Positions 29,203-62,979 of a stretch of DNA of 64,000 bases are shown in pieces. Each line of letters opens with the position of its first letter. Within the stretch, counting starts at the first letter, position 1. Under the pieces are notes generated by a model, which was not told the origin of the DNA, ran no database searches, and worked only from the letters and a program-made list of their open reading frames with translations. Source of the DNA: a virus; the IMG/VR virus record IMGVR_UViG_3300045988_117710. One strand, written 5' to 3'. The translations under genes were made by a program, and so were the position numbers.

Positions 29203-29243
29203 GTTAGTATCTTCGGGTGACGGTAAGGGTTATCGATACTAAC
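29203..29243 (+). other. 9-bp perfect inverted repeat with 23-nt loop
   Basis: GTTAGTATC ... GATACTAAC immediately upstream of tRNA-Pro. Confidence 0.4.
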
Positions 29244-29252
29244 AATTTATTT

Positions 29253-29329
29253 CGGGATGTGGCTCAACTTGGTAGAGCACTTGGTTTGGGACCAAGTGGT
29301 TGCAGGTTCAAATCCTGTCATCCCGACCA
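29253..29329 (+). tRNA. tRNA-Pro (anticodon UGG)
   Basis: Manual cloverleaf; loop TTTGGGA; acceptor CGGGATG/CATCCCG; CCA encoded. Confidence 0.75.
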
Positions 29330-29339
29330 TTTTGTAATT

Positions 29340-29545
29340 ATAAGTAGTGGCGGAATACGTAGACGTGGTCAAGAGGTGAACATAGTGGCAGCTCGATTGT
29401 CAGATAACCTTAAACACTTTTCTTAGGCAAACCGTGAATCGAGGAGAGGGAAAGCATAATCTAGACACATAAGGGAAACCTGTGGTACGAAGACCTAAGA
29501 GAAAATATGTTCATGTGAGGTGGAAATCCTCACCTACTTTATTAT
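29340..29545 (+). ncRNA. candidate small RNA beginning with a tRNA-Leu-like 5' fragment and ending at an intrinsic terminator
   Basis: GTGGCGGAATACGTAGACG is homologous to the D-arm region of tRNA-Leu at 28775 (GTGGCGGAATAGGTAGACG) but no anticodon or T-arm follows; about 200 nt without a long ORF; ends at hairpin GTGAGG-TGGAAAT-CCTCAC plus U-tract. Confidence 0.3.
29515..29545 (+). terminator. intrinsic terminator hairpin
   Basis: GTGAGG loop TGGAAAT CCTCAC followed by CTACTTTATT. Confidence 0.5.
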
Positions 29546-29547
29546 AA

Positions 29548-29624
29548 GGACGCTTAGCTCAGTTGGTTAGAGCTCTTGCCTTACAAGCAAGAGGTCATAG
29601 GTTCGAGTCCTATAGCGTCCACCA
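29548..29624 (+). tRNA. tRNA-Val (anticodon UAC)
   Basis: Manual cloverleaf; loop CTTACAA; acceptor GGACGCT/AGCGTCC; CCA encoded. Confidence 0.8.
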
Positions 29625-29628
29625 TTAT

Positions 29629-29692
29629 GTTGGTTAGCCGGTTCGCTAAGCTTTAAAGCATGCTGTTAGTGGTTCAATTCCACTAGCCAACA
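29629..29692 (+). other. truncated tRNA-like element (64 nt; acceptor and T-arm intact, no canonical D or anticodon arm)
   Basis: Acceptor GTTGGTT/AGCCAAC and T-arm AGTGG-TTCAATT-CCACT are clear; the internal 32 nt (palindromic GCTTTAAAGC) cannot form standard D and anticodon arms. Confidence 0.3.
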
Positions 29693-29697
29693 CTTAT

Positions 29698-29774
29698 ACA
29701 GGTATAACTCAGTTGGTTAGAGTACTCGTCTGATACGCGAGATGTCGGTGGTTCGAGTCCACCTACCTGTACCA
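29698..29774 (+). tRNA. tRNA-Ile (anticodon GAU)
   Basis: Manual cloverleaf; loop CTGATAC; acceptor ACAGGTA/TACCTGT; CCA encoded. Confidence 0.75.
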
Positions 29775-42364: not shown

Positions 42365-43348
42365 ATGATGAAGTCAGATCAAGAGTTTTTCATTGAGAGA
42401 ATGTATAAATTCTTCAAATCAACTCTAGCTGAAAGTATGACTAAGGATGATCTTGATATCATTATTCATCTTATGTCATATGTTTTAGGTGATATTGATT
42501 TTGAAGCAACTAGAATGAAGTCCTATGTAGCGATTGATTTAACTCCTACTGATAGGATTCAACAATTATCTACGAATGTTGCTTTCCCATGGTCTAATGC
42601 TCTTACACCAGAGCAACAAAGACAATATGTTAAGTTATATCACTTGATTAGAAGAAGACGTGGGACTGTATGGGCAATCGAAAATCTTTGTAAGGTTTTT
42701 GGTCAAGATACAGCTTCTTATTATCAAGCAAGTGATTTACGTTCTGTTAAGCTTTTAGAGTATCCTTACAATTATACTGGAGATGCTCCATGTGATACTT
42801 TAAAGGATGAGAATGGTAAACCAATTCTAGATGAGAATGGTTGTACTATTCCAGATAAATCAAAACCATTAAAGTGGTGTTATTATCAATCAGGAGCACC
42901 TAAGTTTCCTGGTGATATGGTTTTAAGAATTCCACATATGACAACTATTCTTTATAATGAGATAGTTAATACAAAACTTGCTGGTACAAGATTATATTTC
43001 TTATTTTATTTTATGCAAGGTATTTTCCATTGTGCACCTAGTACAACTGGATTAAGTAATAGAAAGTTCTTCTTCGATCCTGCTTATGGTAAGGATTATT
43101 GGAAGATATCAGATTTACAAGCACCGGCTTGGGATAAGACTCCTACATCAATTATTATGTATATGGAGGATTATCAAGTAGGACATTATGTAGATAACTA
43201 TGAGGTTACTGCAAGTCAAATGTTCAAGGTTAAGACAGTTAAGCCATTTGATAAGGGATGGATTTTCCATGAGGTTAATACTCCAAATTATCGTGGTTAT
43301 ATTATTAGTTCTGAACAAATCGTTGATGACGAAGTTTTATATAATTAG
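42365..43348 (+). CDS. hypothetical protein
   Basis: ORF track. Confidence 0.4.
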   Translation: MMKSDQEFFIERMYKFFKSTLAESMTKDDLDIIIHLMSYVLGDIDFEATRMKSYVAIDLTPTDRIQQLSTNVAFPWSNALTPEQQRQYVKLYHLIRRRRGTVWAIENLCKVFGQDTASYYQASDLRSVKLLEYPYNYTGDAPCDTLKDENGKPILDENGCTIPDKSKPLKWCYYQSGAPKFPGDMVLRIPHMTTILYNEIVNTKLAGTRLYFLFYFMQGIFHCAPSTTGLSNRKFFFDPAYGKDYWKISDLQAPAWDKTPTSIIMYMEDYQVGHYVDNYEVTASQMFKVKTVKPFDKGWIFHEVNTPNYRGYIISSEQIVDDEVLYN

Positions 43349-43367
43349 TTTAAGAGGAGAGTAGGTT

Positions 43368-44018
43368 ATGAGTACTTATATCACACCAGAGTTTCCTAAT
43401 GTAATTAAGACACAAGTTATTACATTGAAATCTAGACAAAGAAGAATGGTAGATTTCTATAATTTACCTGGTAGTTTCTATATGGCTTTTGGTAAGCAAA
43501 CTCCATGGAAGTCTGATACTGATCCTAATGTTAGTGATACTAATCCACCAGTACCAGATCCTAATCAACAATATATAAGTGAGTTGATTGGTCTTTGGAG
43601 AATTCAATGGAAGATGTATGCTAAGCCATTAATTAATCCAACTACTGAAGAGAAGAATAATCATATCAAGCCAATTTATAGTGGTGAGCAAATAATTGGT
43701 TATACAGATGGTGTTGAGGAATACAAGGGTGTTTACTATGCTTGTACATTGAATCAAGAGAAGGCACTTAATGAAGGTTATACTTGTGTAATGCTTTATG
43801 CTTATCTTGATAGAGATGATGTGTTCCCTGCAAATGTTACTTTCAGACAAACTGGTTTATATGTTCAATCTACAAAGACAGATTTATATATTCCTGCTAG
43901 TTCTTGGAATAACTATTCTGAAGATGATAAAGGTTATTTAGAGCTTATTTGTAATTGGAGACCTTATACTAGAAGTTCTGAAACAAGCGAAGAGTTCTTT
44001 TCGTTATTCTCATTTTGA
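43368..44018 (+). CDS. hypothetical protein
   Basis: ORF track. Confidence 0.4.
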   Translation: MSTYITPEFPNVIKTQVITLKSRQRRMVDFYNLPGSFYMAFGKQTPWKSDTDPNVSDTNPPVPDPNQQYISELIGLWRIQWKMYAKPLINPTTEEKNNHIKPIYSGEQIIGYTDGVEEYKGVYYACTLNQEKALNEGYTCVMLYAYLDRDDVFPANVTFRQTGLYVQSTKTDLYIPASSWNNYSEDDKGYLELICNWRPYTRSSETSEEFFSLFSF

Positions 44019-44078: not shown

Positions 44079-44963
44079 ATGGGAGTGAAAGGAAGAAAGA
44101 TTTTACCAAAGTTAACATTAGAATTACTTAAAGAAGAGAGACCAGATATTGAAATACTAGGAGAATATATTAATAACTATACTAAACTTAAAGTCAGATG
44201 TAGTTGTGGAAACATTTATGAAGCAGCACCATCAACATTAAGGAAAGGCCATAAATGTATGAAGTGCTCTGGTAATAATAAGATAACATTAGATATTGTT
44301 CAAAAAGAACGACCAGATTTATTTATTGTTGAAGTTGTTAATGCCTATAATATTTATTATTTGTGTCCGACTTGTGGTACTAAATGTAAAACTTCATATT
44401 CTTGGTTAACTAATAAAGATGTTTCAAAGAGAACTAAAGGTTGTATTAAATGTCATACTTCAAGACTAGCAAAGTCTAAATTTTCTACTAAAGAGGAGCT
44501 TCAGAAGAAGTGTCCTGATATTGAGATATTAGGAGAGTATGTCGATTCCTATACACCAATTGAGTATAGATGTAGGTGTGGAGAAATTCATAAATCAAAG
44601 CCACAACATTTAACTCAAGGTAAGAGATGTGGACATTGTAAGAGGTATACAGGAGAAGAGGTTATTAAGGATTTTCTTAATAGTAATAGTATTTCTTACA
44701 TTAAACAGTATAGGTTTAAAGATTGTAGAGATAAATTACCTCTACCATTCGATTTCTACTTACCTGACTATAATATGTGTATAGAGTATGATGGACTTCA
44801 GCATTTTGAACAGAGGAAAGGTTGGACAGACTTAAGTGAAGTTCAGTTACATGATTCTATTAAGACAAATTATTGTAAGAGTAACAATATTACTTTATTG
44901 AGGATTTCTTATAGGCAATTAAGTGAAATACAAGATATATTAACAGAAACGTTCAAAAGTTGA
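44079..44963 (+). CDS. putative endonuclease with three N-terminal Zn-ribbon repeats and a C-terminal PD-(D/E)XK-like domain
   Basis: Three repeats of C-x-C-G...L..G..C..C; C-terminal CIEYDGLQHFE...K resembles DUF559/Vsr-like restriction-endonuclease-fold nucleases; terminator overlaps stop. Confidence 0.45.
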   Translation: MGVKGRKILPKLTLELLKEERPDIEILGEYINNYTKLKVRCSCGNIYEAAPSTLRKGHKCMKCSGNNKITLDIVQKERPDLFIVEVVNAYNIYYLCPTCGTKCKTSYSWLTNKDVSKRTKGCIKCHTSRLAKSKFSTKEELQKKCPDIEILGEYVDSYTPIEYRCRCGEIHKSKPQHLTQGKRCGHCKRYTGEEVIKDFLNSNSISYIKQYRFKDCRDKLPLPFDFYLPDYNMCIEYDGLQHFEQRKGWTDLSEVQLHDSIKTNYCKSNNITLLRISYRQLSEIQDILTETFKS

Positions 44964-45104: not shown

Positions 45105-46499
45105 ATGTTAAAAACTAATCTTAACGAAAGTACTTTAATTAAAAAATATTCTCCAATTTTAGAATCAGTTGAAACTGGTTTAAAGAACTTAGGAAGAGAT
45201 GTTGCTGAATTCGATTCTTATAAGAAATATACTTTATCAAGAATCATGGAAAATGCTCAAAACTTAATTGAAACTTATTCAAAAAATAAGGCAATTATGG
45301 AAGCTGGTACTTTCCAAGTAAACAATGTTCCTGCTAAAAACCAATACTTAAAATTAACTGCTGCTGTTTATCCACAATTAGTAGCTGAAAATGTTGCTTC
45401 TGTTCAAGCAATGGAATATAAAGATGCAACTTGCTACTATTTAGGATATACTTATGGAGACAACAGAGGAGAAATCAAAGCTGGTGATTCTATAAGTACA
45501 GTATTCCAAGTTGGCCCAGATTCTGACAAATATGCTGCTTCTACAAGATATGCTTCTGAAGCTATCTCTCAAGAAGAATTAGTTGTTGAAGCTGGTGAAG
45601 CAAAACTTGCTTGGGGACCAGTTATTCCTGGATCAGTTGCTATCGATATTGATGGTACTGGTGCTACAATCGTAACTGATGACGGTTTAGGTGCATTATC
45701 TGACGGTGGTGCTATTGATTATGCTACTGGTACAATTACTGGTGCTACAATCGTTGAAGGTGCTAAAGCTGATTACAAACAAAATCTAGAATATGCCCCT
45801 GCTCAATTACCATCTGTTAGCTTAGATATTAAACCTTTATTCTTACATGCTAAACCTAAAGCATTAAGAACTGCTTATAGCTTAATTGGTGCATTCGATT
45901 TACAACAAACTCAAGGTTTAGATGCACAAAAATTATTAAGCAACTTAGCTACTGACGAATTAAGATGTGAAATCGATGGAGAAATCTTAAATGATATAGC
46001 TTCATTACCTGCTTCTGCTGCAGCTGGTGTAGTTACATGGAATATGGAAGTTCCATTTGGTATCAATAAGAAAGAACATTATGAAAGCTTATACTTCAAA
46101 ATTATTGAAGCTGGTTCAATCATCAAACAAGTTACTCGTAAATACGAAGGTAACAGAGTTATCGCTGGATTCAACGCTAACTATGTATTAAAAACTTTAG
46201 ATGAATTCAAAGCTGCTTCAACAAGAAATAGTGTAGGTCCTGTTGTTTCTGGTACTTTAGCTGGTGACTATACAGTTATCTATAACCCATATATTGGTGA
46301 AGATGATTTCACAGTATTATATCAAGGTCAAACATTTGACACAGCTTATATCTATGGTGTTTATATGCCTATCGTTTCTAGCCAATTCATTATGGATGAT
46401 ACTTTACTAGGACGTCAAGGATATGCTACAGAATACGCTAAATCATTTGTTAACCGTAAATATGTAGTTAAAGGTAAAATTACTCACAACGTTGCTTAA
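45105..46499 (+). CDS. major structural protein, probably major capsid protein
   Basis: 464 aa; codon usage differs from neighbours (prefers AAC, TTC, TAC, GAA, AAA); strong terminator directly downstream; own RBS AGGAGAAAAG. Confidence 0.4.
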   Translation: MLKTNLNESTLIKKYSPILESVETGLKNLGRDVAEFDSYKKYTLSRIMENAQNLIETYSKNKAIMEAGTFQVNNVPAKNQYLKLTAAVYPQLVAENVASVQAMEYKDATCYYLGYTYGDNRGEIKAGDSISTVFQVGPDSDKYAASTRYASEAISQEELVVEAGEAKLAWGPVIPGSVAIDIDGTGATIVTDDGLGALSDGGAIDYATGTITGATIVEGAKADYKQNLEYAPAQLPSVSLDIKPLFLHAKPKALRTAYSLIGAFDLQQTQGLDAQKLLSNLATDELRCEIDGEILNDIASLPASAAAGVVTWNMEVPFGINKKEHYESLYFKIIEAGSIIKQVTRKYEGNRVIAGFNANYVLKTLDEFKAASTRNSVGPVVSGTLAGDYTVIYNPYIGEDDFTVLYQGQTFDTAYIYGVYMPIVSSQFIMDDTLLGRQGYATEYAKSFVNRKYVVKGKITHNVA

Positions 46500-46612: not shown

Positions 46613-46673
46613 TTATAGTGTTAAGTAGTTATATATTTATATAGTTTAGATAGATTCTAAAGAGGAGGTGTTT

Positions 46674-49600
46674 ATGGCTTCTTATTATAGTAGTGATTCT
46701 TCTGTTAATTTAAAGAATTTTGGAAAGAAGGCCTATTTACAAGCCGATGTATCTTATTCACGTTCTGGTACTACTGGTTATAATGTAACAGTAGCAGTTT
46801 ATCTTAAAACACGTTCTACAAGTACTTCTTGTCCATTCTATTCTTATAGTTGTTATCAATATTGCTCTATTAATGGAGTAGAAAAACGTAATACAAGTAG
46901 TAGTAATCCAAGTTCAAGTTGGAGAGCTCGTGATGGAGTTCATTTGTGGTCTAGTACTCAATTTGTAGATCCGGGTGGACCTGCATATAGTTGTCCTTTT
47001 AGTGTTACTTATCGTGTTCCTTCTGGTACATATACTTTTAGTAGTCAACAAACTTTTTCTATTAGTAATTCAATAACTCTACCAGCTACTTGGGTTGCAC
47101 CAACTCAAACTTTCTTAACTTCAGCTACAAATACTACAACTAATAATACAAGTTCTAGTAGTAGAAGTTTTACTGATAATACCCACGCTTCTGGTAATAC
47201 TAGTTATGTAGGTGATTCTTTTAGTTATACTTGGGATAAGAATGACCAAGCAAATGTAGGTTCAAATGCTAATCCAGGTTCTTATGCTTATTTAGCTAGA
47301 AGTTCTTCTAATACGTCTGGTTCTGTTAATAATCACCCATCTACTGGTACAGATATTCATACTGCATGGGGATGGACTCATGGTGGAGATGATTTATATG
47401 TAGGTGGTTATACTTATACTGCAGTTCCTGCTGATGGTGGTAATTACTTATTAGCTTGTATGTATAAATATTATGCAGATTCTAATGGTAATGCATGTCA
47501 TTTTCATCAAGCAAATGGTCATTATATTCAAGCTATACCAACAATTTCTGCTACATATACTGTTAGGTCTAGAAAGCTTTATAGAAGTTCACCATCAACT
47601 GTAGTAGTTCAGTTATCTGCTATTTCTATTACAACTAATGGTTATAGGATTCATAGACGTAATAGTGATATGGGTATAGTTGAGTTTCATACTTGTACTG
47701 CTAATGGTTTCGCTTCAGCTACTAGAGGTTCTGCCGATAATGGTCAAACTTCAAATTATTCAATGTCAGGTAGAACATATCAACTTGTTTGGAAGAATGC
47801 TGCAGCAAGTAATGTTAGTGCTGGTACTTATACATCTGGAGTTTATTCTAGATATCAAAGTCCTAACTTAACAGCGGCATATACAACTGGACATGATTTA
47901 TATACTGTTTCTAATGCTTTAACTGTTGTTGATGGTTCTTTCTCAAAGATTGCTGCAAAGAACTTTAAGATAACTAATCCATCAAGTCAATATCCAACTT
48001 CTGCTTCAACTATGAATTTCTTATTAGGTTGGGAGTATAATGGTACACATAACAATGTTCGTGGTGATTATAGAATTGAACGTTCAACTGATGGTTCTAC
48101 TTGGGGTGTTGGTGGTATATCTGGTGGTACTGTTTATAAGGATTGGAGAGGATGGACAGTAGATACTGATTTATCTTCTACTGGATGGAGAATTGACCAA
48201 TCTGGCACTACTTATGTTTATGCTGATGTTCCTTTATCAACAACTGGATATTACTATAGGATTTCTTTAATCCCATCTAGTACAGATTCAGCAGGATATC
48301 AAATCTTCGGTGATCCTATTTATTTAGTTTCTGATAAGATTTATCGTGTTATTATTCCTGCAGTACCTAAGGTTAATTATTTAACAAGTATTTTACCTCC
48401 TATTGTTGGTATTGCTAATGATTTCTATTATAAATATCAGAATACATCTAATTGGGGTAACTTCTCACCTAATACTGATTTTGGACATATTAGAAGACAA
48501 TACTATGATGGTTCACATTATGAAGATTTAACAGATACTTCTAATATTACTGCTAGTGGTTATGTAGAAGGTGTATATTCAAAAACTGTTCCGAGTACTT
48601 CTACTGGTTCACTTTCTTTAAGAGTTAAGTCGTCTGTTAAGACAACTAATTGGAGTGATACAGAGTTTACTTCAGCACAATCTAATTATAAGTCTTTAGC
48701 ATTGATTGCTCAGAAGAAGTATTCTATTACAGCTTCTGATGTTGCAATTTCAACTCCATTAGCAACTACTTTATTAAGAAATATTCCATTTACTTTATCT
48801 TTACCTCGTAAAACTATTAATGGTAACTATTTAATTAATTCTGGTAGTATTTATGTAGATGGTACTAAGTCATCTGACTTTAATGATTTATCATATACAC
48901 TTGGTGATGTAGCTGGTTGGGGAACAACTTTTGTAGGTGGTAATACTACTTTAGGTTCTGATGGTGTTTGTACTTCTATATCTGGTGATAGGTCTATTTC
49001 ATTTGCTAATAAGAGTTGGTCTACAGATACTTTAACTAGAGGTGTTCATACTATTAAGGTAGATGTTGAAATTCTTACTTACTTTGATTCTGATGGTGTT
49101 AGAACTATTAATGGTACAAATTACAATTTACCTACTAACCATGTTCTATTTGGTTCTACTGGTGTGTTATCTTCTAATACATTAACTGTTGAGATTGGAG
49201 ATATTCCAGCTGCACCAACTATTAATATTCCAAATCCTCAATTCTTTAATGCAGGTCAAGAAAGAAAGTTAACTTGGACTTTCTCACCTAATGATTGGGG
49301 TGTTAATGATACAACTTATAATAATAGACATTATGATTATGAGTTATATAATCCAGCAGGTACTAAGATTCAATCAGGTACTATTGCTAAAGGAACTACT
49401 TCTCATACATATACATTTACTCCAAGTAATGCTGATTTAGGTTCTTATAAGTTTAGATTACGTCAAGTTAATGTTCTTGGTGTTTCTAATTGGGTTGAGT
49501 CTGAAATAGAAATTCAAAAGGCAATTGAGCCAACTACTTCTACTTTCTCAACTTCTGAAGTAATTGCCTTAGCTGATTGGGATTATTCATTATCAATTAA

Positions 49601-50804
49601 ACCTGGTAATAATGGTTCTTATAAACCAGTAACTACTGCTCCTATTGCTAGATATAAGATTGATGTTGTTCAGTTACCTAAGAACTTATATAATCCATCA
49701 TTTGCAGTATTTGATTCTAATTATATTACTGATGTAGGAAGTGGTTGGTATCATTTAGCTGCTGATAGAACAAGTGCAACTGGTGTAGATTATGCTGATT
49801 TCTGGACAAATTGGAATCAATATTTGAAAGCCAATACAGATTATACTTATGTACTTGAAGTTAGAAATGCTAGTGTTAATAGAAGTTTAATATTTGAATT
49901 AGGAGATACTGCTGCTCCTTCAGCTCAATTCTCTACAAACTTTGAGTTGATTGGTGATTCTGCTGATGAACTTAATGGAACACATTTCTTCTATGTTAAG
50001 ACTAAAGCTGATATGAAATCAACTTTATATAATAAGCATTGTGGTAGAGACTTTGTAACTTTACCTGCAGGATGTAATTATAGTTTAGATTTCAGAATCT
50101 CTATTATTGAAGGACATATTCCTGAAGATGAGTTCACTTATTCTGCTTATAAGAATCCTTATATAACAAATCTTACAGCTTGGACGAATGTAGGTAATGG
50201 TGCAAACATTTCTAGAAACTTAACTCATAACTTAAGTAATTATATTGATGGTTCTTATAGTCTTTATATTCCTTATGAGAGATACTATACAACATTCACT
50301 TCTAAAGAATCTCTTATTACTCAGATTATTCCACCTGAGATTCAAATTACTGATGCTAGTACTATTGAATGGGTTGGTACTGATAAGGCAGAGTTTAACT
50401 TTAAGATGTTTGTAGATATCTTTGGATGGTGTGGAACATGGAATGCTAATGAAAATCCACATACTGGTGGATGTTGGGCTGAGTATTCATTAGATTATGG
50501 TAAGACTTGGACAAGAGCTTATGATAATAAAGCGGATAGAGTTATTGAGATTCCACTTACTTGGTTAGATGAGATTTGGCTTCGTGGTTATGGTGCTAAT
50601 CCTGTTGATACTGATGATAAGTTTACTGTTGGTACAGATTCTAATGGTGATCCTATTAAGGTTGAGATTGTTAAGCATGATATGTATTCTTGTTATAAAG
50701 CATGGTTAGCTGAGAATGGTGGTGCTGAGGATTGGACAAGAAAGATTCATTTATCTCATAACAATACGAAAGAGAAGAAAATTCGCAAGATAACTAAGGA
50801 ATAA
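46674..50804 (+). CDS. very large Ser/Thr/Tyr/Asn-rich fiber or adhesin-like structural protein
   Basis: 1377 aa; low-complexity STYN-rich composition; RBS AAGAGGAGGTG before ATG 46674 (track start GTG 46668). Confidence 0.5.
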   Translation: MASYYSSDSSVNLKNFGKKAYLQADVSYSRSGTTGYNVTVAVYLKTRSTSTSCPFYSYSCYQYCSINGVEKRNTSSSNPSSSWRARDGVHLWSSTQFVDPGGPAYSCPFSVTYRVPSGTYTFSSQQTFSISNSITLPATWVAPTQTFLTSATNTTTNNTSSSSRSFTDNTHASGNTSYVGDSFSYTWDKNDQANVGSNANPGSYAYLARSSSNTSGSVNNHPSTGTDIHTAWGWTHGGDDLYVGGYTYTAVPADGGNYLLACMYKYYADSNGNACHFHQANGHYIQAIPTISATYTVRSRKLYRSSPSTVVVQLSAISITTNGYRIHRRNSDMGIVEFHTCTANGFASATRGSADNGQTSNYSMSGRTYQLVWKNAAASNVSAGTYTSGVYSRYQSPNLTAAYTTGHDLYTVSNALTVVDGSFSKIAAKNFKITNPSSQYPTSASTMNFLLGWEYNGTHNNVRGDYRIERSTDGSTWGVGGISGGTVYKDWRGWTVDTDLSSTGWRIDQSGTTYVYADVPLSTTGYYYRISLIPSSTDSAGYQIFGDPIYLVSDKIYRVIIPAVPKVNYLTSILPPIVGIANDFYYKYQNTSNWGNFSPNTDFGHIRRQYYDGSHYEDLTDTSNITASGYVEGVYSKTVPSTSTGSLSLRVKSSVKTTNWSDTEFTSAQSNYKSLALIAQKKYSITASDVAISTPLATTLLRNIPFTLSLPRKTINGNYLINSGSIYVDGTKSSDFNDLSYTLGDVAGWGTTFVGGNTTLGSDGVCTSISGDRSISFANKSWSTDTLTRGVHTIKVDVEILTYFDSDGVRTINGTNYNLPTNHVLFGSTGVLSSNTLTVEIGDIPAAPTINIPNPQFFNAGQERKLTWTFSPNDWGVNDTTYNNRHYDYELYNPAGTKIQSGTIAKGTTSHTYTFTPSNADLGSYKFRLRQVNVLGVSNWVESEIEIQKAIEPTTSTFSTSEVIALADWDYSLSIKPGNNGSYKPVTTAPIARYKIDVVQLPKNLYNPSFAVFDSNYITDVGSGWYHLAADRTSATGVDYADFWTNWNQYLKANTDYTYVLEVRNASVNRSLIFELGDTAAPSAQFSTNFELIGDSADELNGTHFFYVKTKADMKSTLYNKHCGRDFVTLPAGCNYSLDFRISIIEGHIPEDEFTYSAYKNPYITNLTAWTNVGNGANISRNLTHNLSNYIDGSYSLYIPYERYYTTFTSKESLITQIIPPEIQITDASTIEWVGTDKAEFNFKMFVDIFGWCGTWNANENPHTGGCWAEYSLDYGKTWTRAYDNKADRVIEIPLTWLDEIWLRGYGANPVDTDDKFTVGTDSNGDPIKVEIVKHDMYSCYKAWLAENGGAEDWTRKIHLSHNNTKEKKIRKITKE

Positions 50805-50818: not shown

Positions 50819-50860
50819 AGAGTACTTTGGGTGTCACCTCCTCAGGGTACTCTTTTATTT
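50819..50860 (+). terminator. intrinsic terminator
   Basis: AGAGTAC ... GTACTCT stem with internal GGTG/CACC hairpin, then TTTTATTTT. Confidence 0.45.
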
Positions 50861-50921: not shown

Positions 50922-51293
50922 GTGATATATGTGAGTAGTTTCGATACAGATAAGATGTATACAGAGTTGAATAGACTTTTAGATACCTATTCATTTTCTG
51001 AATTGATGTGGTTGTTTAGAAATATTACTTATGACCAAATTAAATACTTTTCTGAAGATAGTAAGGGAGTTATTTATGATGGTTCTTATTCTAGGGAAGT
51101 AATAGAACAGGCAACTGATTTTCAACGTAAGATTTCGACTTATGCAGATCTTATGAATCAATCTATTTCAAATCATAGAGAGTTTGATAGGGATTATTTA
51201 AAGCAATATGAGTATGCTGGACCTTATCTTAATATTATCGAGAGTTTGAAAGAGAGAATCAATTTTTTGGAAGGTGTTGAGGAAGATGACTAG
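50922..51293 (+). CDS. hypothetical protein
   Basis: ORF track; GTG start downstream of promoter motif 50912. Confidence 0.4.
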   Translation: MIYVSSFDTDKMYTELNRLLDTYSFSELMWLFRNITYDQIKYFSEDSKGVIYDGSYSREVIEQATDFQRKISTYADLMNQSISNHREFDRDYLKQYEYAGPYLNIIESLKERINFLEGVEEDD

Positions 51294-52488
51294 TGTGGCA
51301 AAGAGTTATCAGTTTACTTTAACTGATAAGTATGTTTCAAGTTGGGGTTATTTAGAAGGTATTCGTGAGTTATTACAGAATGCCTATGATTATGGTAATT
51401 ATGATATTTCTTTTGGTTCTGATTCTATTGTTATTAAGAATTATAATGATAAGATTCAAATTAAAACTTTGTTGATGGGTTATGGGACAAAGACCAATGA
51501 TAAGAATTCTATTGGTGGATTTGGTGAAGGTTTTGTTTTAGCTCTATTGGTTCTATTAAGACAAGGATTTCAAGTTCATATAGAGAATGCTGATGAAGTA
51601 TGGATTCCTTATTTCCAAGAGAGTGAAGAGTTTAATAATGAGAGATTATTCCATATCAATGTTTTAGAGAGTGAAAGTCCAACTGATGATTTGTCTATTA
51701 TTGTAAGTGGTTTTAGTCCTGAACAATTGAATTCTATTCAAGATGAGTTCTTAGGTTTACAAGGAGATTATTCTTCTATTAAGACTTTATATGGTGAAAT
51801 TCTTACTGATCCTAATCAGAAAGGTAAGATGTATGTTGAAGGTTTACCTATTACTACTGATAGAGATTTTGAGTATGGATATAACTTTAAAGCAGAGTAT
51901 GTTATCCTAGATAGAGATAGGAAAGATATTAATCATAAGGAACTTAAGAAGATTACTTCTATGGCAATTGTTCATATGGAGGAAGATAATTTTGATTTTG
52001 TAGATAGTATTGTTGATTCTGGTAAGGAAGATATTTATGCTTTTAATCATAAGGAGATAGAGCTTCCTAAAACTTTTGTTGATAAGTATTCAGACCATTT
52101 AAAGAAGAAGTTTAGTGTTGCTGATACATCAGTTGTTGTTAATAAAACTGATGAGAAGGTTATTAAGGAACTTGAGGATATGGGTGAAGAAGTTGTTACT
52201 GTTGATAGGAAGATTTATGCAGATATTATTAATGAGACTTCTGAATATTCTTATGATAAATATCAACAAGCATCTAAAACTGTTAGTAGTAGAAGTAAGG
52301 TAGATGATGCTTGGATTTATTTTAGAAATAGTACTTATAGTGATTTGTTAGATTGGTTAAAGAAATATGAGTCATTGCTTTCTGAAGAAGCAATTGAAGA
52401 GTATAAGAGTATTATGGAATATAATGAACCTTATTTATTTGAGTTAATTCGTGATGAGGTTTTAGGTGATTCTGATGGGGCGAAATAG
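51274..52488 (+). CDS. GHKL-family ATPase domain protein (Bergerat fold)
   Basis: N-box IRELLQNAYDYG (ELxxNAxD); G-boxes LMGYGTK and IGGFGEGF. Confidence 0.55.
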   Translation: MLRKMTSVAKSYQFTLTDKYVSSWGYLEGIRELLQNAYDYGNYDISFGSDSIVIKNYNDKIQIKTLLMGYGTKTNDKNSIGGFGEGFVLALLVLLRQGFQVHIENADEVWIPYFQESEEFNNERLFHINVLESESPTDDLSIIVSGFSPEQLNSIQDEFLGLQGDYSSIKTLYGEILTDPNQKGKMYVEGLPITTDRDFEYGYNFKAEYVILDRDRKDINHKELKKITSMAIVHMEEDNFDFVDSIVDSGKEDIYAFNHKEIELPKTFVDKYSDHLKKKFSVADTSVVVNKTDEKVIKELEDMGEEVVTVDRKIYADIINETSEYSYDKYQQASKTVSSRSKVDDAWIYFRNSTYSDLLDWLKKYESLLSEEAIEEYKSIMEYNEPYLFELIRDEVLGDSDGAK

Positions 52489-53155
52489 GTTCCCAATTGG
52501 GCTTAAATTTCATCATTTAACGGTTATTGAGTATTTGGGTTCACAGGGTGATAAGAATCGTCACACTCGATATAAATGCCTTTGTGATTGTGGTAAAGAG
52601 GTTATCATTCTTTCTCAACATATTGGTAAGCAGAAGAGTTGTGGGTGTGTTCCTCGAAACAATCATAGATACAAATCGTATAATGTTTCAAAGGAGGATA
52701 GTATGAAATTAGTTCGTGAAGCTGCTTTTGAAACAAATTCAAGTAGTACTCATAGTATTACTATGTGTTCTGGATCTGTTTTCGATGATTGGAAGGATGG
52801 TAAGTTAGTTTTTCTTGAAGATGAGGACAAGTTCTTTGTTAAGGGTAGTCGTGAGTTAAGAGATTGGTATGCTAGGTGTGTTTTACGTTATAAGTGTACT
52901 TATGATTGGGATACTAAATTGTATTCAGATGGATCTGCAACTTATACTGAAGATGAGCTTTTCTGCCAAGAGAGATTAGATTCTGTTTCTGAAGAAGATA
53001 TTTCAGAGTATAGAGAAGATGATTGGTATGCATGTCCACTTTCTTACAGTGAGTGGGTTGACTATCGTGGTGAAGGTTATGAGTTATATGAAGAACGTAA
53101 TACCTTTGATGGTGCAGATGTTGTAGCATTTGGTTACTATGGAAATGATTATTAA
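52466..53155 (+). CDS. FETNSSSTH-motif family protein (paralog B), possibly with N-terminal Zn-ribbon extension
   Basis: Internal ATG 52703 with RBS AAGGAGG gives MKLVREAAFETNSSSTH, matching the N-terminus of ORF 1871; the 79 in-frame residues upstream contain a C-x-C-x-C-G...C-G-C Zn-ribbon like those in ORF 44079. Confidence 0.5.
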   Translation: MILMGRNRFPIGLKFHHLTVIEYLGSQGDKNRHTRYKCLCDCGKEVIILSQHIGKQKSCGCVPRNNHRYKSYNVSKEDSMKLVREAAFETNSSSTHSITMCSGSVFDDWKDGKLVFLEDEDKFFVKGSRELRDWYARCVLRYKCTYDWDTKLYSDGSATYTEDELFCQERLDSVSEEDISEYREDDWYACPLSYSEWVDYRGEGYELYEERNTFDGADVVAFGYYGNDY

Positions 53156-53168
53156 TTTGTTTAATTAA

Positions 53169-53211
53169 AGTCAACAATATTGTTGACTTTTTCTTTTGTT
53201 TATCGTATAAT
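53169..53211 (+). promoter_or_regulatory. palindromic terminator overlapping a full consensus promoter (TTGACT, 17 nt, TATAAT with TCG)
   Basis: GTCAACAAT/ATTGTTGAC palindrome 53169-53188; TTGACT 53183-53188; 17-nt spacer; TCGTATAAT 53203-53211; drives the PARP-like gene. Confidence 0.55.
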
Positions 53212-53236
53212 AGAGACAATGAAAGAGGTAATGTTT

Positions 53237-54496
53237 ATGAAATTTGCAAAGTTAATTATGATTACTGAAGACAATCACAATAAAGAGTATATAATGACTC
53301 AGATTGATTCTTCAACATTTAAAGCTGAATGGGGTAGGGTTGGTTCTAGTTATCAATCAACTACTTATTCTATGTATGAGTGGGATAGTAAGTACAAATC
53401 TAAAGTTAAGAAAGGTTATAAGGATATATCAAATCTAGTTGAGAAGGTTACTGTAGATGGTGATGTTAAGACTTTACCTTATGACTATATTACTAATAAG
53501 TCTGTCAAGGATATTCTTAATAGATTGTATCAATATACTGATTCTTACTTAAAGGAAAACTACTTAGTTAATACTGTAGATGTTTCCAAAGCACAAATTG
53601 ATGAAGCTTATAAGATTATTGATGAGCTTGAAAGATTAGCTTATTCAAGACATTTAGATGTTCGTGAAGTTAATAGAAATTTAATTAAGTTATTTGAAAC
53701 AATTCCAAGACGTATGTCTAGAGTTAAAGATTATTTATGTGATGATTCTATTACTAAAGATAAGGTTGATGAAAAGATTCGTGCTGAGTTAGATATGCTT
53801 AAGACTATGTCAGATGCTGTTGAGTTAAGACTTAAGAAACAAGCTGCAAGTAAGAAGACTACTAAGGTTGAGAAGTTATCTGAATCTGAACAAAAGGATA
53901 AATTACTTGCTGATCTTGGATTAGTTGTAGAGGATGTAACTGATGAGGATATTAAGTTTATTAAGAAACAATTAGGTGAAAGTTCACACTTATTTAAGAA
54001 AGCTTGGAAGATTACTAATCCTGCTACTGAAAAGAGATTTAATGATTTAGTTGCTACTGATGATTTCAAAGGTAAGGAAGTTAAATATTATTGGCATGGT
54101 TCTAGAAATCAAAACTGGTATAATATTATTCAAACAGGATTAACTGCTAATCCTAAGGGTGTTAAGATTACTGGTAAGATGTTTGGTTATGGTATCTATT
54201 TTGCACCTAAAGCAAAGAAGAGTGTTAACTATACTTCTCTTGAAGGTTCTTATTGGGCAAGTGGTAATGATAAGAGTGGGTTCATGGCTTTATTCGAAGT
54301 TGCTATGGGTAATGTGTTAGATGTTTATGATCATCATTACTGGTGTTCAAGAACTAACAAAGAAGAGATGTGGAAACATAACAAGTGTCATACTTTATAT
54401 GCTCACGAAGGTAGAGGTTTCTTATACAATGATGAAGTTATTGCATATGATGATGCACAAGTTAATATTAAATATATAGTGGAGTTGAGTAGATAA
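53237..54496 (+). CDS. PARP-like ADP-ribosyltransferase with N-terminal WGR domain
   Basis: WGR motif FKAEWGRVGS; catalytic signature YYWHGSRNQNWYNIIQTGL (H-G-S), GKMFGYGIYFAPKAKKSVNY, and LYNDEVIAYDDAQVNIKYIV aligning with PARP1 [20 protein letters not shown] (catalytic Glu present); ATG 53237 after RBS AAGAGGT (track ORF 53180). Confidence 0.75.
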   Translation: MKFAKLIMITEDNHNKEYIMTQIDSSTFKAEWGRVGSSYQSTTYSMYEWDSKYKSKVKKGYKDISNLVEKVTVDGDVKTLPYDYITNKSVKDILNRLYQYTDSYLKENYLVNTVDVSKAQIDEAYKIIDELERLAYSRHLDVREVNRNLIKLFETIPRRMSRVKDYLCDDSITKDKVDEKIRAELDMLKTMSDAVELRLKKQAASKKTTKVEKLSESEQKDKLLADLGLVVEDVTDEDIKFIKKQLGESSHLFKKAWKITNPATEKRFNDLVATDDFKGKEVKYYWHGSRNQNWYNIIQTGLTANPKGVKITGKMFGYGIYFAPKAKKSVNYTSLEGSYWASGNDKSGFMALFEVAMGNVLDVYDHHYWCSRTNKEEMWKHNKCHTLYAHEGRGFLYNDEVIAYDDAQVNIKYIVELSR

Positions 54497-54544
54497 TGAA
54501 GAGAGATAAAGCTCTTTAAGTTTGATTAATTTATATATTATTTT

Positions 54545-54630
54545 AGGTGGTTTTAATTCTTTTTCCCACCTGACTTTCTTTTTCTTATTTTTTCCATTGG
54601 GTGGGGTTATCCCACTCTTTTTCGTATAAT
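54545..54630 (+). promoter_or_regulatory. two terminator hairpins followed by TCGTATAAT promoter motif
   Basis: AGGTGG...CCACCT (54545-54571) and GTGGG loop GTTAT CCCAC plus TCTTTTT (54601-54621); TCGTATAAT 54622-54630. Confidence 0.5.
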
Positions 54631-54647: not shown

Positions 54648-54929
54648 ATGATTTGTTCTAATTGTAAGAAGGACACAGCTCTGATGAATAAGGATTTATG
54701 TTTCGATTGTTTTCTTGCAAGTCAGGGAGAGTTTTCTAATAAGTTGTTTTGTCCTAGTTGTTTGAAAGAGACTACTTGTGTATTTGAGTATTCTGTTCAA
54801 GGGTTTCAGCATCGTAAGATTCATGAAGTATCTGGTGTGGTATATAAGGATTTTGATATCTTTGAAGATTACTATACTTGTCTTGAGTGTGACAAGCAGT
54901 TCACAGTTGTTAGGGAAGAAGAGAGATAG
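54648..54929 (+). CDS. Zn-ribbon protein
   Basis: CSNCKK...CFDC...CPSC...CLECDKQF. Confidence 0.4.
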   Translation: MICSNCKKDTALMNKDLCFDCFLASQGEFSNKLFCPSCLKETTCVFEYSVQGFQHRKIHEVSGVVYKDFDIFEDYYTCLECDKQFTVVREEER

Positions 54930-55609
54930 TGAAATATTGTATTTTGTTTACTTTAGATCATGATTATTTAATCATTGGTTTTGATGGAACAGATTATGTT
55001 GCTTCTATAATTAGGACAGGGTGGAATCCCCATACTCTGTCTGCTATTAACTTTAACTTTTGTAATCCTGTGGATAAGAAGTTAATACCTAGGATTTTTA
55101 AAGACCATTATTGGACAAAGAAGAAGTTTTCAATTACTTTTCCAATTTCTTTTGAAGCGGATAGGAATGTCTACTTAGATAGACGTGGGATTCCTAGGTT
55201 TGATTTATTTGATGGTACTCATAAAGATTTTATAAGGAAGTTAGAACTTACTGGTTTTGATTTCACTTGTTTCAATCGAGAGATTTCCAATAGTGAGTTT
55301 GATGTGAATTTAGATTATTTGTTTTATGGCAAGAGTGTTCAGAGGAAGAGTAATTTGCTTTTGAATCTTTATAGAGAACGAAAGGTGAATTATTGTGTTG
55401 TTACTGATTTCTCTTTGGTTGATACAATTCCTGTTGGGTTTCATTTGGTTGTTTATATTGATTCTATGACTAAAGAGTTTCTAGAGTGGTTTAAGTTGGT
55501 CAAGGAGTCTGGTTCTTTTATTTCAATCATTTATACTTCTGATGATTATTCTATTTTAGATAAGAATCGTGCTATATTAGATAACTACCTAATACTACTG
55601 AAGTGTTAG
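54929..55609 (+). CDS. hypothetical protein
   Basis: ORF track; start overlaps upstream stop. Confidence 0.4.
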   Translation: MKYCILFTLDHDYLIIGFDGTDYVASIIRTGWNPHTLSAINFNFCNPVDKKLIPRIFKDHYWTKKKFSITFPISFEADRNVYLDRRGIPRFDLFDGTHKDFIRKLELTGFDFTCFNREISNSEFDVNLDYLFYGKSVQRKSNLLLNLYRERKVNYCVVTDFSLVDTIPVGFHLVVYIDSMTKEFLEWFKLVKESGSFISIIYTSDDYSILDKNRAILDNYLILLKC

Positions 55610-59658: not shown

Positions 59659-60606
59659 ATGGAACAAGAGATATTAAAAGAGTTAGGTGGTAAGTTGAAA
59701 TATCTTATTCGTAAGAAGAAATCATTTCAAGATATTTGTGAAGCTACTGGTCTTAAAGATTATGAGCTTTATGGTGTTGTTCAATTGCTTAAGCAACAAG
59801 GTGAACTTATTGATGTTGTTAATGGTGAGCTAGTTATTCTTAAAACTCCACCTAAGACTTCAGACATTTATACAGTCCCTACTATTTCTGAACATCTTAA
59901 GTTGTTGTTAATTAGTGATACTCATCTATGTAATAAATCTGATAGACTTGATATTCTTCGTTATCTATATGATAAGGCAGAGAAACAAGGTGTTAAGCAT
60001 GTTCTTCATTCTGGAGATTTTACTGATGGTTTATCTAATCGTCCTGAACAGATTTATGAACTTAAAGAACCATCTTATGAAGGTCAAGTTCAATATTGTG
60101 TAGATAAATATCCTAGGTTTAGTGGTAAGACTTATGTTATTCAAGGTAATCATGATGATTGGTGGTTTAAGAGATGTGGTTCAGAGATTGTTAAGGCAAT
60201 TGCTCAACAGAGAGATGATATTGTTTATCTAGGAGCTGATGTTGCTGATCTTCATATTGGTAAGCTTAAGTGTAGATTATTTCATGGTTCTGGCGGCTCT
60301 TCTTATGCAGTGTCTTATAAGATTCAGAAGTATTTAGATTCTATTCCTTTAGAAGAACGTCCTGATATTCTTCAAACAGGACATATTCATCGTGCTTTCT
60401 ATATGCATAATGTATCTACTCATTGTTTTCAAACAGCTTCTTTAGAAGATCCAACTCCATATAGTCGTTCTATGGGATTCCCTAATGATTTATCTTGTTG
60501 GTGGGTTGATGTTGATTTTGATAACAAGGGTAATCCTGTTATGATTCAACCTCAATTAGAAACTTTCCCTACTAAGAGATTAGTTAAATCTCGTTATAAG
60601 GGATAA
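59659..60606 (+). CDS. calcineurin-like metallophosphoesterase
   Basis: LLISDTHL (GDxHG-like), HSGDFTDG (GDxxDRG), IQGNHDDWW (GNHD/E), GHIHR (GH); N-terminal wHTH-like segment. Confidence 0.65.
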   Translation: MEQEILKELGGKLKYLIRKKKSFQDICEATGLKDYELYGVVQLLKQQGELIDVVNGELVILKTPPKTSDIYTVPTISEHLKLLLISDTHLCNKSDRLDILRYLYDKAEKQGVKHVLHSGDFTDGLSNRPEQIYELKEPSYEGQVQYCVDKYPRFSGKTYVIQGNHDDWWFKRCGSEIVKAIAQQRDDIVYLGADVADLHIGKLKCRLFHGSGGSSYAVSYKIQKYLDSIPLEERPDILQTGHIHRAFYMHNVSTHCFQTASLEDPTPYSRSMGFPNDLSCWWVDVDFDNKGNPVMIQPQLETFPTKRLVKSRYKG

Positions 60607-61302: not shown

Positions 61303-62979
61303 ATGGAATTTAATTTTGATTTATTAGATTTGTCTGTTCCTGCTTTTACTCTTAAGAAAGAGCAAGTAGATGCAATTAGGTTTTGTTTAGAAAGACCTAA
61401 TGCAGTCATGTCTTTACAGACTGGTTTAGGTAAGACTTGTTCTTCTATTGTTGTTGCAAGAGAGTTGATGAAGCAGTTTAGTAACTTACCATTGCTTAGT
61501 ATATTTATAGTTCCTAATGAAGCTCTTAAAGCTTTCAAGAAGGAGTTTAAGATGATGGGTATTTCTCATTCTACTTGGGAGAGTTCGAAGAAGACCCCAA
61601 GTAAGGGTGCAAGAGTTTTACTTATTACTCATACAGCATTAGTTAAGTATTTTGATGAGGTTCAAACTACTGTTAGAAGATTTAATTGTTTGGCTGTTGT
61701 TGACGAGATTCATAAGTTTAGTAATACAGCAAAGATGACTCAGTCTTTAGCAAAGTTACGCCCTTATTTCAAAAGGTTTTATGGTCTTACTGCTACGACA
61801 GTTAGAAATGATCCTATGTCTTTACATACAATTTGTAATTTGGTTAGACCTGGTTCTTTAGGTACTGAGGTTCAGTTTAAGACAAGATTCTGTACTACAA
61901 AGAAGAAGATGTTTAAGTATACAACCAAGACAGGTTATAAAGGTCAGAAGGAAGTTGTTGAGGTTACAGGATTTAATCCTGATACTCTAGATCAACTTAA
62001 TGCAATTACTGATGATATCATTATCACTCGTAAGCTTGAGTATAATTTAATGCTTCATAGTATTGATATTCCTTTAGAGAATGAAGTTTGGATGAATTAT
62101 AAGAGAGCTGGTGTTGGGGTTCGTCCTGTTAAGACTAAGACTGTTGAGAAGAAGGTTAAGGATTTGACTACTGGTTTGGATAAGATTACTTATGTTGAGG
62201 TTGAGGATAAGGATTCTTTAGCTTCTTGGGCTGTGAAGTTAATTGATTTACAGAAGTGTTTGGATAATTCTTCAGAGTTTTTTCCACAACTCCCATTTAC
62301 TAATAAGGAGCAGTATTTTCTTAATTGGGTGAAGAGGTTGTTTGATGAAGGACATATTCCTATTGTGTATTGTTTCTATTTAGATACGATTGAACGAATC
62401 AAGAGTTTATTATGGAGATATAAGGATCAGCTTCAACTTGAGGATGTATTTGTTATCTCTGGTCAAGTTGAGAAGAAGGAGAGAGCAAAGATTGAGGATA
62501 AGATTGCACCTAGAACGGTTACTATTATTAATCGTGCTGGTACTGTTTCTATTAATCTTCAGAAGGCAGATACTCTTATATTTTATAATATTCCATGGGC
62601 AATTGATGAGTATTTACAAGCAGTTGGTCGTATAACAAGAACTGATACGAAGTTTGATAGTCAACATATTTACTTTCTAGAGTATGAGGGTACTATTGAT
62701 AATTATCGTGTTATTAAGATTAAGAATCATCTTAATGCTGTTGAGCAGATTCAAGGAGATCAGTTAACAAGTTCTGATGGTATTAATTTATCTGCTAATG
62801 GTATGAGGGATGTTAAGAAGTTACTTCTTTGGTGCTTTAAGCAAGATAATCCTGTTACTAAGGATGAGTTACTTGCTAAGATTAGTTCCAAGAAATCAAA
62901 GAAGAGTAAGAAGGTAGAAATTTCTGATGAGAAGAAAGAGATTTTAAATGATATACTAGGAACTGGCAAGGATTCCTAG
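61303..62979 (+). CDS. SNF2/DEAD-like superfamily 2 helicase
   Basis: Walker A LQTGLGKTCS; DExH-like VVDEIHKF; motif VI QAVGRITR. Confidence 0.65.
   Translation: MEFNFDLLDLSVPAFTLKKEQVDAIRFCLERPNAVMSLQTGLGKTCSSIVVARELMKQFSNLPLLSIFIVPNEALKAFKKEFKMMGISHSTWESSKKTPSKGARVLLITHTALVKYFDEVQTTVRRFNCLAVVDEIHKFSNTAKMTQSLAKLRPYFKRFYGLTATTVRNDPMSLHTICNLVRPGSLGTEVQFKTRFCTTKKKMFKYTTKTGYKGQKEVVEVTGFNPDTLDQLNAITDDIIITRKLEYNLMLHSIDIPLENEVWMNYKRAGVGVRPVKTKTVEKKVKDLTTGLDKITYVEVEDKDSLASWAVKLIDLQKCLDNSSEFFPQLPFTNKEQYFLNWVKRLFDEGHIPIVYCFYLDTIERIKSLLWRYKDQLQLEDVFVISGQVEKKERAKIEDKIAPRTVTIINRAGTVSINLQKADTLIFYNIPWAIDEYLQAVGRITRTDTKFDSQHIYFLEYEGTIDNYRVIKIKNHLNAVEQIQGDQLTSSDGINLSANGMRDVKKLLLWCFKQDNPVTKDELLAKISSKKSKKSKKVEISDEKKEILNDILGTGKDS

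Follow-up and report, generated by a model that had tools for sequence, protein, structure and literature searches.

Do four neighbouring genes of a large phage form a dedicated functional module, or do they merely share a history? The genes lie at positions 50,922 to 54,496 of a 64,000-nucleotide stretch of DNA (the window) from IMG/VR virus record IMGVR_UViG_3300045988_117710. They encode a small protein (ORF1), a GHKL-type protein (ORF2), a zinc-ribbon protein carrying the motif FETNSSSTH (ORF3), and a PARP-like enzyme (ORF4). An earlier note had placed these four co-oriented genes between two promoters and proposed that they form a conserved module. All four are present on the plus strand, with start codons revised here from Shine-Dalgarno (SD) positions and from gene calls in sister strains of 95% identity (Table 1). 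The reading we favour, and consider reasonably probable, is that the block is a relocated slice of a hyperplastic early/accessory region, now lodged between late structural genes, and not a dedicated four-gene machine. What links the genes is best read as a common history and a common regulatory class within one clade, and not as an obligatory joint function. An accessory early-gene role is compatible with both the promoter class and the plasticity of the region.

Transcription units and gene order

Fifteen copies of the promoter motif TCGTATAAT are present in the window, all of them on the plus strand, a number that chance would put at 0.43. Four copies fall within or at the edges of the block (50902; 52676, inside ORF3; 53203; and 54622), and five of the 15 are accompanied by TTGAyT at the −35 position. 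A hairpin with a T-run lies directly upstream of the copies at 50902, 53203, and 54622, and also of those at 9696 and 61078; the 3' arm of the hairpin between ORF3 and the PARP gene supplies the −35 element of the PARP promoter. Not one of the 15 copies stands in front of a structural gene. A different element, TTATATATTWA, is carried by structural genes 31-42 nt upstream of their starts, also by the two that flank the block (starting at 46668 and 55770), and may represent the late promoter class. (Exact copies are found at 30582, 44054, 46629, and 55726: four, versus 0.88 expected.)

The arrangement is therefore not that of four genes between two promoters: four promoter copies and three significantly stable terminator-like hairpins divide the block into at least three transcription units. 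Nor does a single-operon reading survive the separate promoters and terminator hairpins. The model that we propose comprises three autonomous units, each with a putative phage σ70-like promoter (TTGAyT-N14-TCGTATAAT) and with terminator hairpins between them. Unit 1 would consist of ORF1, the GHKL-fold protein, and the zinc-ribbon ORF, in which successive genes overlap at their stop and start codons; unit 2, of a 150-residue FETNSSSTH protein with its own −10 element, SD, and ATG, into which the zinc-ribbon ORF also reads in frame; and unit 3, of a monocistronic PARP gene, presumably expressed from a promoter of the type used by host RNA polymerase.

A precedent exists in the PeSL (promoter-early stem-loop) cassettes of T4-type phages (PMC2839356, PMC4122927), to which the terminator-promoter composites of the window appear analogous. 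In both, a σ70-like promoter is joined to an upstream stem-loop, the unit is repeated before accessory genes, and it occurs in plastic regions of phages with a gp23-type capsid. The window composites differ in their TCGTATAAT core, in their AT-rich stems (that at 54599 excepted), and in the apparently Firmicute host. Moreover, the sole indel resolved here is a microhomology deletion that such elements do not bound.

Gene order was compared between the window and related viral loci, designated by L-numbers (L109-112 are the sister strains). Three lineages of a single clade (that of the window, L005, and L024) carry both GHKL and PARP genes; their PARP proteins are 68-83% identical. In L005, where ORF3, GHKL, and PARP are 61%, 83%, and 83% identical to those of the window, the order is capsid gene, large structural gene, ORF1, two small inserted genes, GHKL, zinc-ribbon-FETNSSS, an 87-residue gene, and PARP. 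In L024 (GHKL 49%, PARP 68%), between unrelated flanks, GHKL is followed by FETNSSS-157, an 80-residue gene, PARP, FETNSSS-141, and a FETNSSS gene with a frameshift. L012 (PARP 77%) carries FETNSSS genes on both sides of PARP, and GHKL was not found within 8 kb. In L029 (GHKL 51%), ORF1 lies directly upstream of GHKL; next come ClpN-AAA, a proteasome-like gene, and two genes of the FETNSSS family, and PARP is absent. The co-occurrence expected of a conserved module is thus seen in the window, L005, and L024, and is missing from L012, L029, and the loci surveyed outside the clade.

Relocation is indicated by the position of Thg1. In L012, L024, and L029, PARP and/or GHKL lie 1-3.5 kb downstream of a Pfam-annotated Thg1 gene whose product is 70-77% identical to the Thg1-like protein of the window. 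The window gene lies at 7492-8349, far from the block; because the counterparts in the other three loci stay near Thg1, it is the window lineage that has moved the block, out of the early region around Thg1 and in among the late structural genes. (Separately, a precomputed PF25185 (Tad3) label falls 2-4 kb downstream of PARP or GHKL, on L024 11336-11869 and L029 11155-11658.) Further plasticity is evident immediately downstream of PARP, where the sister strains L109-112 carry two extra genes (127 and 77 residues) translationally coupled to PARP (L109 13566-14179); the window retains a seven-codon stub.

Outside the clade, the neighbourhoods of homologues in unrelated genomes do not bear out the co-occurrence that the earlier note had put forward. 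GHKL loci were gathered by alignment-based search, a single-protein locus search having returned none; among 79 further viral loci of this family (24-44% identity, 8 kb on either side), not one has PARP nearby. No neighbour family recurs in more than 12 of the 90 GHKL loci, although subsets adjoin recombination genes: PD-(D/E)XK exonuclease, SSB, RecU, and AAA_24. Likewise, the 12 more distant PARP loci have neither GHKL nor FETNSSS genes nearby. PARP has a different recurrent neighbour: in nine of 16 PARP loci a winged-helix-like module (TTLEIKxELR...DNGTYRxYS) is encoded by a nearby gene, mostly the one at +1. The nine are L003, L013, L015-L020, and L022; the module spans about 65 residues (TTLEIKxELR..W.Q..VS..M...DNGTYRxYS), has no Pfam match, and often is followed by a C-terminal GxFFTxxFxKKDGxxRxM module. 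Two of these loci, L019 and L020 (near-identical sequences), also encode a Macro domain at −3 of PARP, and in Cellulophaga phages PARP lies between a CCA-adding enzyme and DNA ligase. Neither a Macro domain nor the winged-helix partner was detected in the window by tblastn.

These comparisons also bear on a rival reading, in which the three proteins GHKL, FETNSSS, and PARP truly work together as a functional cassette of this clade that moved as a unit; for example, one for DNA-end-sensing ADP-ribosylation, with the zinc-ribbon/FETNSSS protein targeting DNA and GHKL clamping or remodelling it. In its favour, the window, L005, and L024 share the gene order, the last with unrelated flanks. A FETNSSS gene stands within one or two genes of PARP in all four independent PARP-carrying lineages of the clade; the 64-kb window has just two FETNSSS genes, one of them exactly between GHKL and PARP; and the zinc-ribbon part of ORF3 is under strong purifying selection. 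However, L012 has PARP without GHKL and L029 GHKL without PARP, the pairing is absent from the 79 other GHKL loci and the dozen or so distant PARP loci, and PARP is set apart by a terminator-like hairpin and a separate promoter. Adjacency to a FETNSSS gene is cheap, since these genes are multi-copy in islands (3-6 per 13-17 kb), and the roughly 2,800 FETNSSS clusters far outnumber phage PARPs. On balance a cassette of this kind is unlikely.

Three points nonetheless weigh against the relocated-slice reading. First, even at 49% GHKL identity, in L024 with its entirely different flanks, GHKL is still followed by a FETNSSS-family gene, in some lineages a small gene, and then PARP, which could reflect selection for linkage. 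Second, the 590-bp difference between strains after PARP, at 54510/54517, is a deletion at AGAGAT microhomology and is not bounded by promoter/hairpin repeats; the microhomology at its breakpoints rules out a cassette-mediated origin for this indel. Third, we infer that the block is an island of the early, host-RNA-polymerase promoter class inside the late region, and that timing is read from sequence class only. The locus offers a caution for neighbourhood-based function prediction: what looks like a tidy module can prove to be a mosaic whose accessory genes are transcribed independently.

The PARP and GHKL-fold proteins

Both of these proteins are further members of already known kinds. The earlier PARP-like call for ORF4 is borne out by a PF00644 match of 77.7 bits (cutoff 26.7) and by alignment to PARP1 helical plus catalytic and WGR-catalytic structures in the PDB (E 1.5e-15). 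The catalytic triad H287, Y321, and E400 is invariant across 12 phage homologues; the corresponding segments WHGS, GIYFA, and NDE align with the PARP1 triad, which we take to be H862, Y896, and E988. The WGR domain is sub-threshold by Pfam alone (13.5 versus 22 bits), but PDB alignments reach into WGR-CAT constructs, its signature is literally WGRVG, and residues G33, R34, K56, K59, G60, Y61, and D63 are invariant in the same 12 homologues. The helical regulatory domain has no Pfam match of its own; the alignment of residues 135-383 spans both the helical and the catalytic portions of PARP1 structures of the catalytic fragment, and the IPRRM helix is conserved across the 12.

By these features the protein is a bona fide WGR-helical-catalytic member of the PART family, in the H-Y-E clade of ADP-ribosyltransferases (ARTs); it is complete and probably active, and would sense nucleic-acid ends. 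Its domain order, WGRVG, IPRRM, and H-Y-E are those of PARP1/PARP2-type proteins, including gp031 of Cellulophaga phage phi4:1, whereas zinc fingers and a BRCT domain are lacking. A PARG/Macro partner was not found in the window by one tblastn query, and the winged-helix partner of nine of the 16 phage PARPs is absent as well. Homologues occur in just 15 of 50,697 phage records, and ORF4 is 30-37% identical to annotated phage PARPs.

Surveys of viral ADP-ribosylation (PMC9503650, PMC1266365) and of gut jumbo phages (PMC11662467) recognize a phage PARP family, and PMC9503650 counts phage PARTs as a frequent viral ART family. In the passages drawn on here, none of the three reports a function for phage PARPs; those with the complete WGR-helical-catalytic architecture are catalogued but not known to have been characterized. 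The mechanism that we envisage is that WGR would sense nucleic-acid ends and relieve autoinhibition by the helical domain, whereupon the H-Y-E domain would move ADP-ribose from NAD+ to host or phage proteins or to nucleic-acid ends. Host takeover, repair, or counter-defence could be the outcome, and we infer a role for PARP in one of these. The PARP of this abundant gut phage of about 185 kb provides a tractable entry point: it is a self-contained promoter-gene-terminator unit, and natural variants exist with or without the two coupled genes.

The T4 enzymes Alt, ModA, and ModB belong to the R-S-E clade and lack a WGR sensor; packaging of Alt relies on a leader. Like them, ORF4 is a phage-encoded, NAD+-dependent ART (its activity being predicted), and they provide a functional analogy for host takeover; unlike them, it belongs to the H-Y-E clade and has a nucleic-acid-end sensor domain. 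Might ORF4 also be made late with the head genes, loaded into the capsid, and injected, as is Alt? In the window, L005, and L109-112, its gene follows closely after the major capsid gene and a 1,378-residue structural gene, and viral ARTs are enriched in myoviruses, often beside head or morphogenesis genes (PMC9503650). However, the PARP promoter is of the TCGTATAAT class of non-structural genes and not TTATATATTWA, a terminator-like hairpin would shield the gene from upstream transcription, and the L012 and L024 orthologues reside in the non-structural region near Thg1. The protein has neither a MuF/portal fusion nor a leader peptide, and its homologues align from residue 1 of the 419-residue form. 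A packaged effector is accordingly very unlikely, and we retain the view of PARP as a relocated accessory enzyme.

For ORF2, searches with sequence alone (Pfam, phmmer against the PDB, and a PDB profile) returned nothing relevant, only spurious DARPin matches. PHROGs places the protein in phrog_6077 (E 2.6e-75), with no function assigned; homologues in 108 phage records include some labelled histidine kinase-like ATPase; a sub-threshold match to sacsin ATP-binding is the only one in NCBIfam; and all metagenomic homologues bear a PF25856 (MPN635_N) label, for which precomputed annotation is the sole basis. The fold emerges from structure and profile comparison. An AlphaFold2 (AF2) model built from 47 homologues (predicted local distance difference test score, pLDDT, 88.7) matches the ATPase domains of Hsp90, Topo VI-B, and African swine fever virus (ASFV) Topo II in Foldseek with probabilities of 0.85-1.0 (Hsp90 7kw7_A, E 1.7e-4, probability 0.99; ASFV Topo II, probability 1.0), and a profile alignment by hhalign to the HSP90-alpha N-domain has a probability of 88.5%. 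The GHKL (Bergerat) fold is thereby confirmed at the level of a structural model and a profile.

The three motifs named in the earlier note, IRELLQNAYD, GYGTK, and IGGFGEGF, are all present, and the first and last are indeed the N-box and G2 box; GYGTK was misassigned as a G-box, since in the HSP90 alignment the actual G1 position reads I-x-N56-x-(N/G). (Residue numbers follow the 404-residue form starting at 51274; the HSP90-alpha residue numbers are to be taken with caution.) The N-box E-x3-N-x2-D is intact: E32, N36, and D39 are invariant and align with the HSP90 N-box, presumably E47, N51, and D54. The G2 box, I-G81-x-F-G84-E85-G86, likewise is intact and aligns with HSP90 IGQFGVGF. Position 56, opposite the adenine-binding Asp of HSP90 (which we take to be D93), is Asn in 40 of the 47 homologues, Ser in six, and Thr in one, so that the G1 Asp is missing; position 58 is N, G, or D. 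ORF2 thus shares the Bergerat fold, catalytic Glu, Mg-binding Asn, and G2 box with GHKL ATPases (Hsp90, MutL, Topo VI-B, MORC, sacsin), but differs from them in the Asn/Ser at the Asp of DxGxG, in a lid shorter than that of Hsp90, and in a helical C-terminal half that matches no family.

Because Asn replaces the adenine-binding Asp, canonical ATP recognition is doubtful, and so, as judged from these residues, are ATP binding and hydrolysis. The active site predicts unusual nucleotide recognition in a family that occurs in more than 100 cultured phages without a known role. The GHKL-fold protein is a widespread and usually solitary phage protein of early and recombination neighbourhoods, and we picture it as probably a nucleotide-dependent dimerizing clamp or chaperone with atypical nucleotide recognition.

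ORF3 and the FETNSSSTH family

FETNSSSTH marks a family, very large and so far undescribed, whose members are small phage proteins that evolve fast; the fusion in ORF3 is lineage-specific. In an exhaustive profile search the family comprised 2,804 representatives when clustered at 50%, and 1,482 of these matched with E ≤ 1e-10; among the roughly 2,800 representatives the zinc-ribbon-FETNSSSTH fusion occurs in this lineage only. Pfam, PHROGs, NCBIfam, and PADLOC contain no model for the family; a Foldseek search of the ORF3 model against the PDB gave no match better than E 0.6; and a full-text literature search for ETNSSS returned no paper. It represents a large blind spot of phage protein annotation and is the least understood part of the block.

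The zinc-ribbon and motif described earlier are both there, with a Cys cluster at C38, C40, C42, C59, and C61. Residues 9-62 match the middle of phrog_374 HNH endonucleases (E 1.1e-15), and the modelled ribbon matches the N-terminal module of AP2/HNH homing-endonuclease-type phage proteins in BFVD (Foldseek probability 1.0, root-mean-square deviation about 2 Å, 53-64 residues); beyond the ribbon, ORF3 has just one weak, uncharacterized match there. The likeness to phrog_374 proteins therefore extends to sequence (the SCGC motif) and predicted fold, but ORF3 has no nuclease or AP2 domain and is fused in frame to the FETNSSSTH domain. From M80 onward, ORF3 belongs to a family of otherwise standalone proteins of 100-170 residues that start at the motif. 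AF2 models both domains well (pLDDT >90 for residues 96-229), with the linker and motif below 50.

The 18-codon linker between the domains is translated and yet contains an embedded TCGTATAAT −10 element and a perfect SD (AAGGAGGA), 5 nt before the internal ATG. The spacing from −10 to ATG is 18 nt, the same as at the paralogue 1844/1871, and the embedded TCGTATAAT is kept in L005 (10202) and L109 (11746). Comparison of the window with the 61%-identical L005 orthologue gives a ratio of nonsynonymous to synonymous substitution (dN/dS) of 0.07 for the zinc-ribbon codons (dS 1.5, saturated) and 0.52 for the FETNSSSTH domain; synonymous divergence (pS) in the linker is 0.09 versus 0.47-0.65 in the flanks. 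The near absence of synonymous change in the linker is consistent with an embedded DNA signal, and the low dN/dS argues that the ribbon is a constrained, translated domain. Since the FETNSSSTH unit retains all that is needed for independent expression, both isoforms, a long (putatively DNA-binding) and a short one, likely are made.

Alternatively, the ribbon could be the decaying remnant of a homing endonuclease, the fusion an annotation artefact, and the 150-residue protein the only product. The module is typical of HNH/AP2 homing endonucleases and the nuclease domain is missing; the internal −10, SD, and ATG are intact; gene callers chose the 150-residue form in sister strains; and homing endonucleases are active in the phage population (LAGLIDADG in the L109-111 capsid gene). 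Decay is nonetheless rejected by the constraint on the ribbon codons. Moreover, in the window, L005, and L109 the ribbon frame continues open into the FETNSSS domain, and the long form has its own SD (AGGTGA) and a start codon overlapping the GHKL stop. A remnant is thus very improbable indeed, and the two-isoform interpretation is retained.

The N-terminal tag M-K-x-x-R-x-x-x-F-E-T-N-S-S-S-T-H is invariant, and AFGYYGNDY lies at the C-terminus. A set of 23 distinct paralogues all share F-E-T-N-S-S-S-T, together with R at −3, counted as three residues before I/V/T-F-E. The form M-K-L-I-R-x-x-[IVT]-F-E-T-N-S-S-S-T-H, always from Met1, heads paralogues with unrelated C-termini, and copies are found in tandem: six in L007, three in L010, five in L012, three in L024, and three in L029. 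The second FETNSSSTH gene of the window (1871-2659, 262 residues, phrog_28997) lies directly upstream of a Clp_N plus AAA ATPase gene (2679-3875) and a proteasome/HslV-type subunit gene (3875-4525; PF00227, 30.5 bits versus a cutoff of 22.4), a pair that resembles a phage ATP-dependent protease.

One could imagine that the tag is a recognition, processing, or modification site handled by phage enzymes, placing GHKL, PARP, protease, and tagged proteins in a single post-translational control network that would serve host takeover; we consider this quite improbable. Candidate handlers would be the ClpN-AAA plus proteasome-like protease, which adjoins paralogues here and in L029, or the neighbouring PARP, because Glu, Ser, Thr, and His all are ADP-ribose acceptor types. 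Reading MKxxRxxxFE as a T4-style capsid-targeting or protease leader is unsupported: the invariance runs past Glu (TNSSSTH), baseplate genes and not a prohead protease lie upstream of the capsid gene, and the capsid protein contains no [ILVTA]FE site.

ORF1, by comparison, is an orphan without a Pfam or PHROG family or domain match; a search of 5.8 billion proteins gave only 13 clusters of homologues, every one from this clade. None of the block proteins has a PADLOC match, and the stress-signalling or anti-defence cassette suggested in the earlier note is a conjectural reading.

The phage and the surrounding window

The window comes from a myophage with a large genome of low GC content (about 32%); sister strains of about 95% nucleotide identity are 185-189 kb contigs in metagenome assemblies, and megablast of the block against the 50,697 phage records gave zero matches. 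In addition to structural genes (Table 1), the window encodes anaerobic NrdD and TelA. The nearest cultured relatives of its capsid protein are from large Firmicutes phages (Listeria LIS04, Bacillus SP-15, Streptococcus GXN1; 29-36% identity), and the host apparently is a Firmicute. No large ORF and no family-annotated gene is found on the minus strand; two minus-strand ORFs within the block (52914-53219 and 53731-54069) lie inside plus-strand genes and were on these grounds treated as spurious.

Table 1. Positions of the block, its regulatory elements, and structural genes in the window (aa, amino acids)
Feature	Position	Strand	Remarks
ORF1	50931-51293	+	120 aa
ORF2, GHKL-fold (Bergerat) ATPase-like protein	51286-52488	+	400 aa; 8-nt overlap with ORF1
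ORF3, long form	52475-53155	+	226 aa; 14-nt overlap with GHKL stop
Zinc-ribbon module of ORF3	52475-52651	+	Cys 38/40/42/59/61 in 229-aa numbering
ORF3, short form (FETNSSSTH-family protein)	52703-53155	+	150 aa; internal start
ORF4, PARP	53237-54496	+	419 aa
Stub MKRDKAL plus stop	54496-54519	+	7 codons; remnant of the 127-aa and 77-aa genes deleted in the window
Promoter P1	50882-50910	+	TTGATT-N17-TATAAT plus phage-specific TCG extension; TCGTATAAT at 50902; before ORF1
Embedded −10, TCGTATAAT	52676-52684	+	In 18-codon ORF3 linker, translated
Embedded Shine-Dalgarno, AAGGAGGA	52691-52698	+	Perfect; 5 nt before ATG at 52703
Promoter P3	53183-53211	+	TTGACT-N17-TATAAT plus TCG extension; 11/12 consensus matches; before PARP
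Promoter, TCGTATAAT	54622-54630	+	Drives 54648-55609; directly 3' of hairpin 54599-54617
Terminator-like hairpin and T-run	50819-50853	+	−16.9 kcal/mol, z = −3.0, then UUUUAUUUU; closes structural gene 46668-50804
Terminator-like hairpin and T-run	53167-53190	+	−10.7 kcal/mol, z = −5.0; between ORF3 and PARP
Terminator-like hairpin and T-run	54599-54617	+	z = −2.5
TCGTATAAT, all copies	1844, 5895, 9696, 16179, 19279, 22021, 40297, 40357, 50902, 52676, 53203, 54622, 60633, 61078, 62983	+	
Sheath-like gene	30624	+	
Baseplate genes	42365-44018	+	Upstream of capsid gene
Major capsid protein, gp23-type	45105-46499	+	

GC skew is strongly positive across positions 1-64000 (0.07-0.40) and weakest at the structural genes (44-50 kb). 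A tmRNA gene and 23 tRNA genes cluster at 18383-29774, including one tRNA with a four-base anticodon (atag; 25956-26030, per ARAGORN). tRNA-His is not among the tRNAs of the window, yet the phage encodes the Thg1-like enzyme.

Just 3' of the tail-fibre-like genes lie a calcineurin-like metallophosphoesterase gene (59659-60606) and an SNF2/DEAD-type helicase gene (61303-62979); the TCGTATAAT promoters at 60633 and 61078 precede the latter two units of this neighbourhood. A zinc-ribbon/CapR-homology gene at 44079-44963 is found in L110 and is missing from L109 and L111. The major capsid gene is uninterrupted in the window (sites 45412/45413 and 46363), whereas the copies of L109-L111 are split by two insertions, roughly 1 kb in size and coding for LAGLIDADG homing endonucleases.

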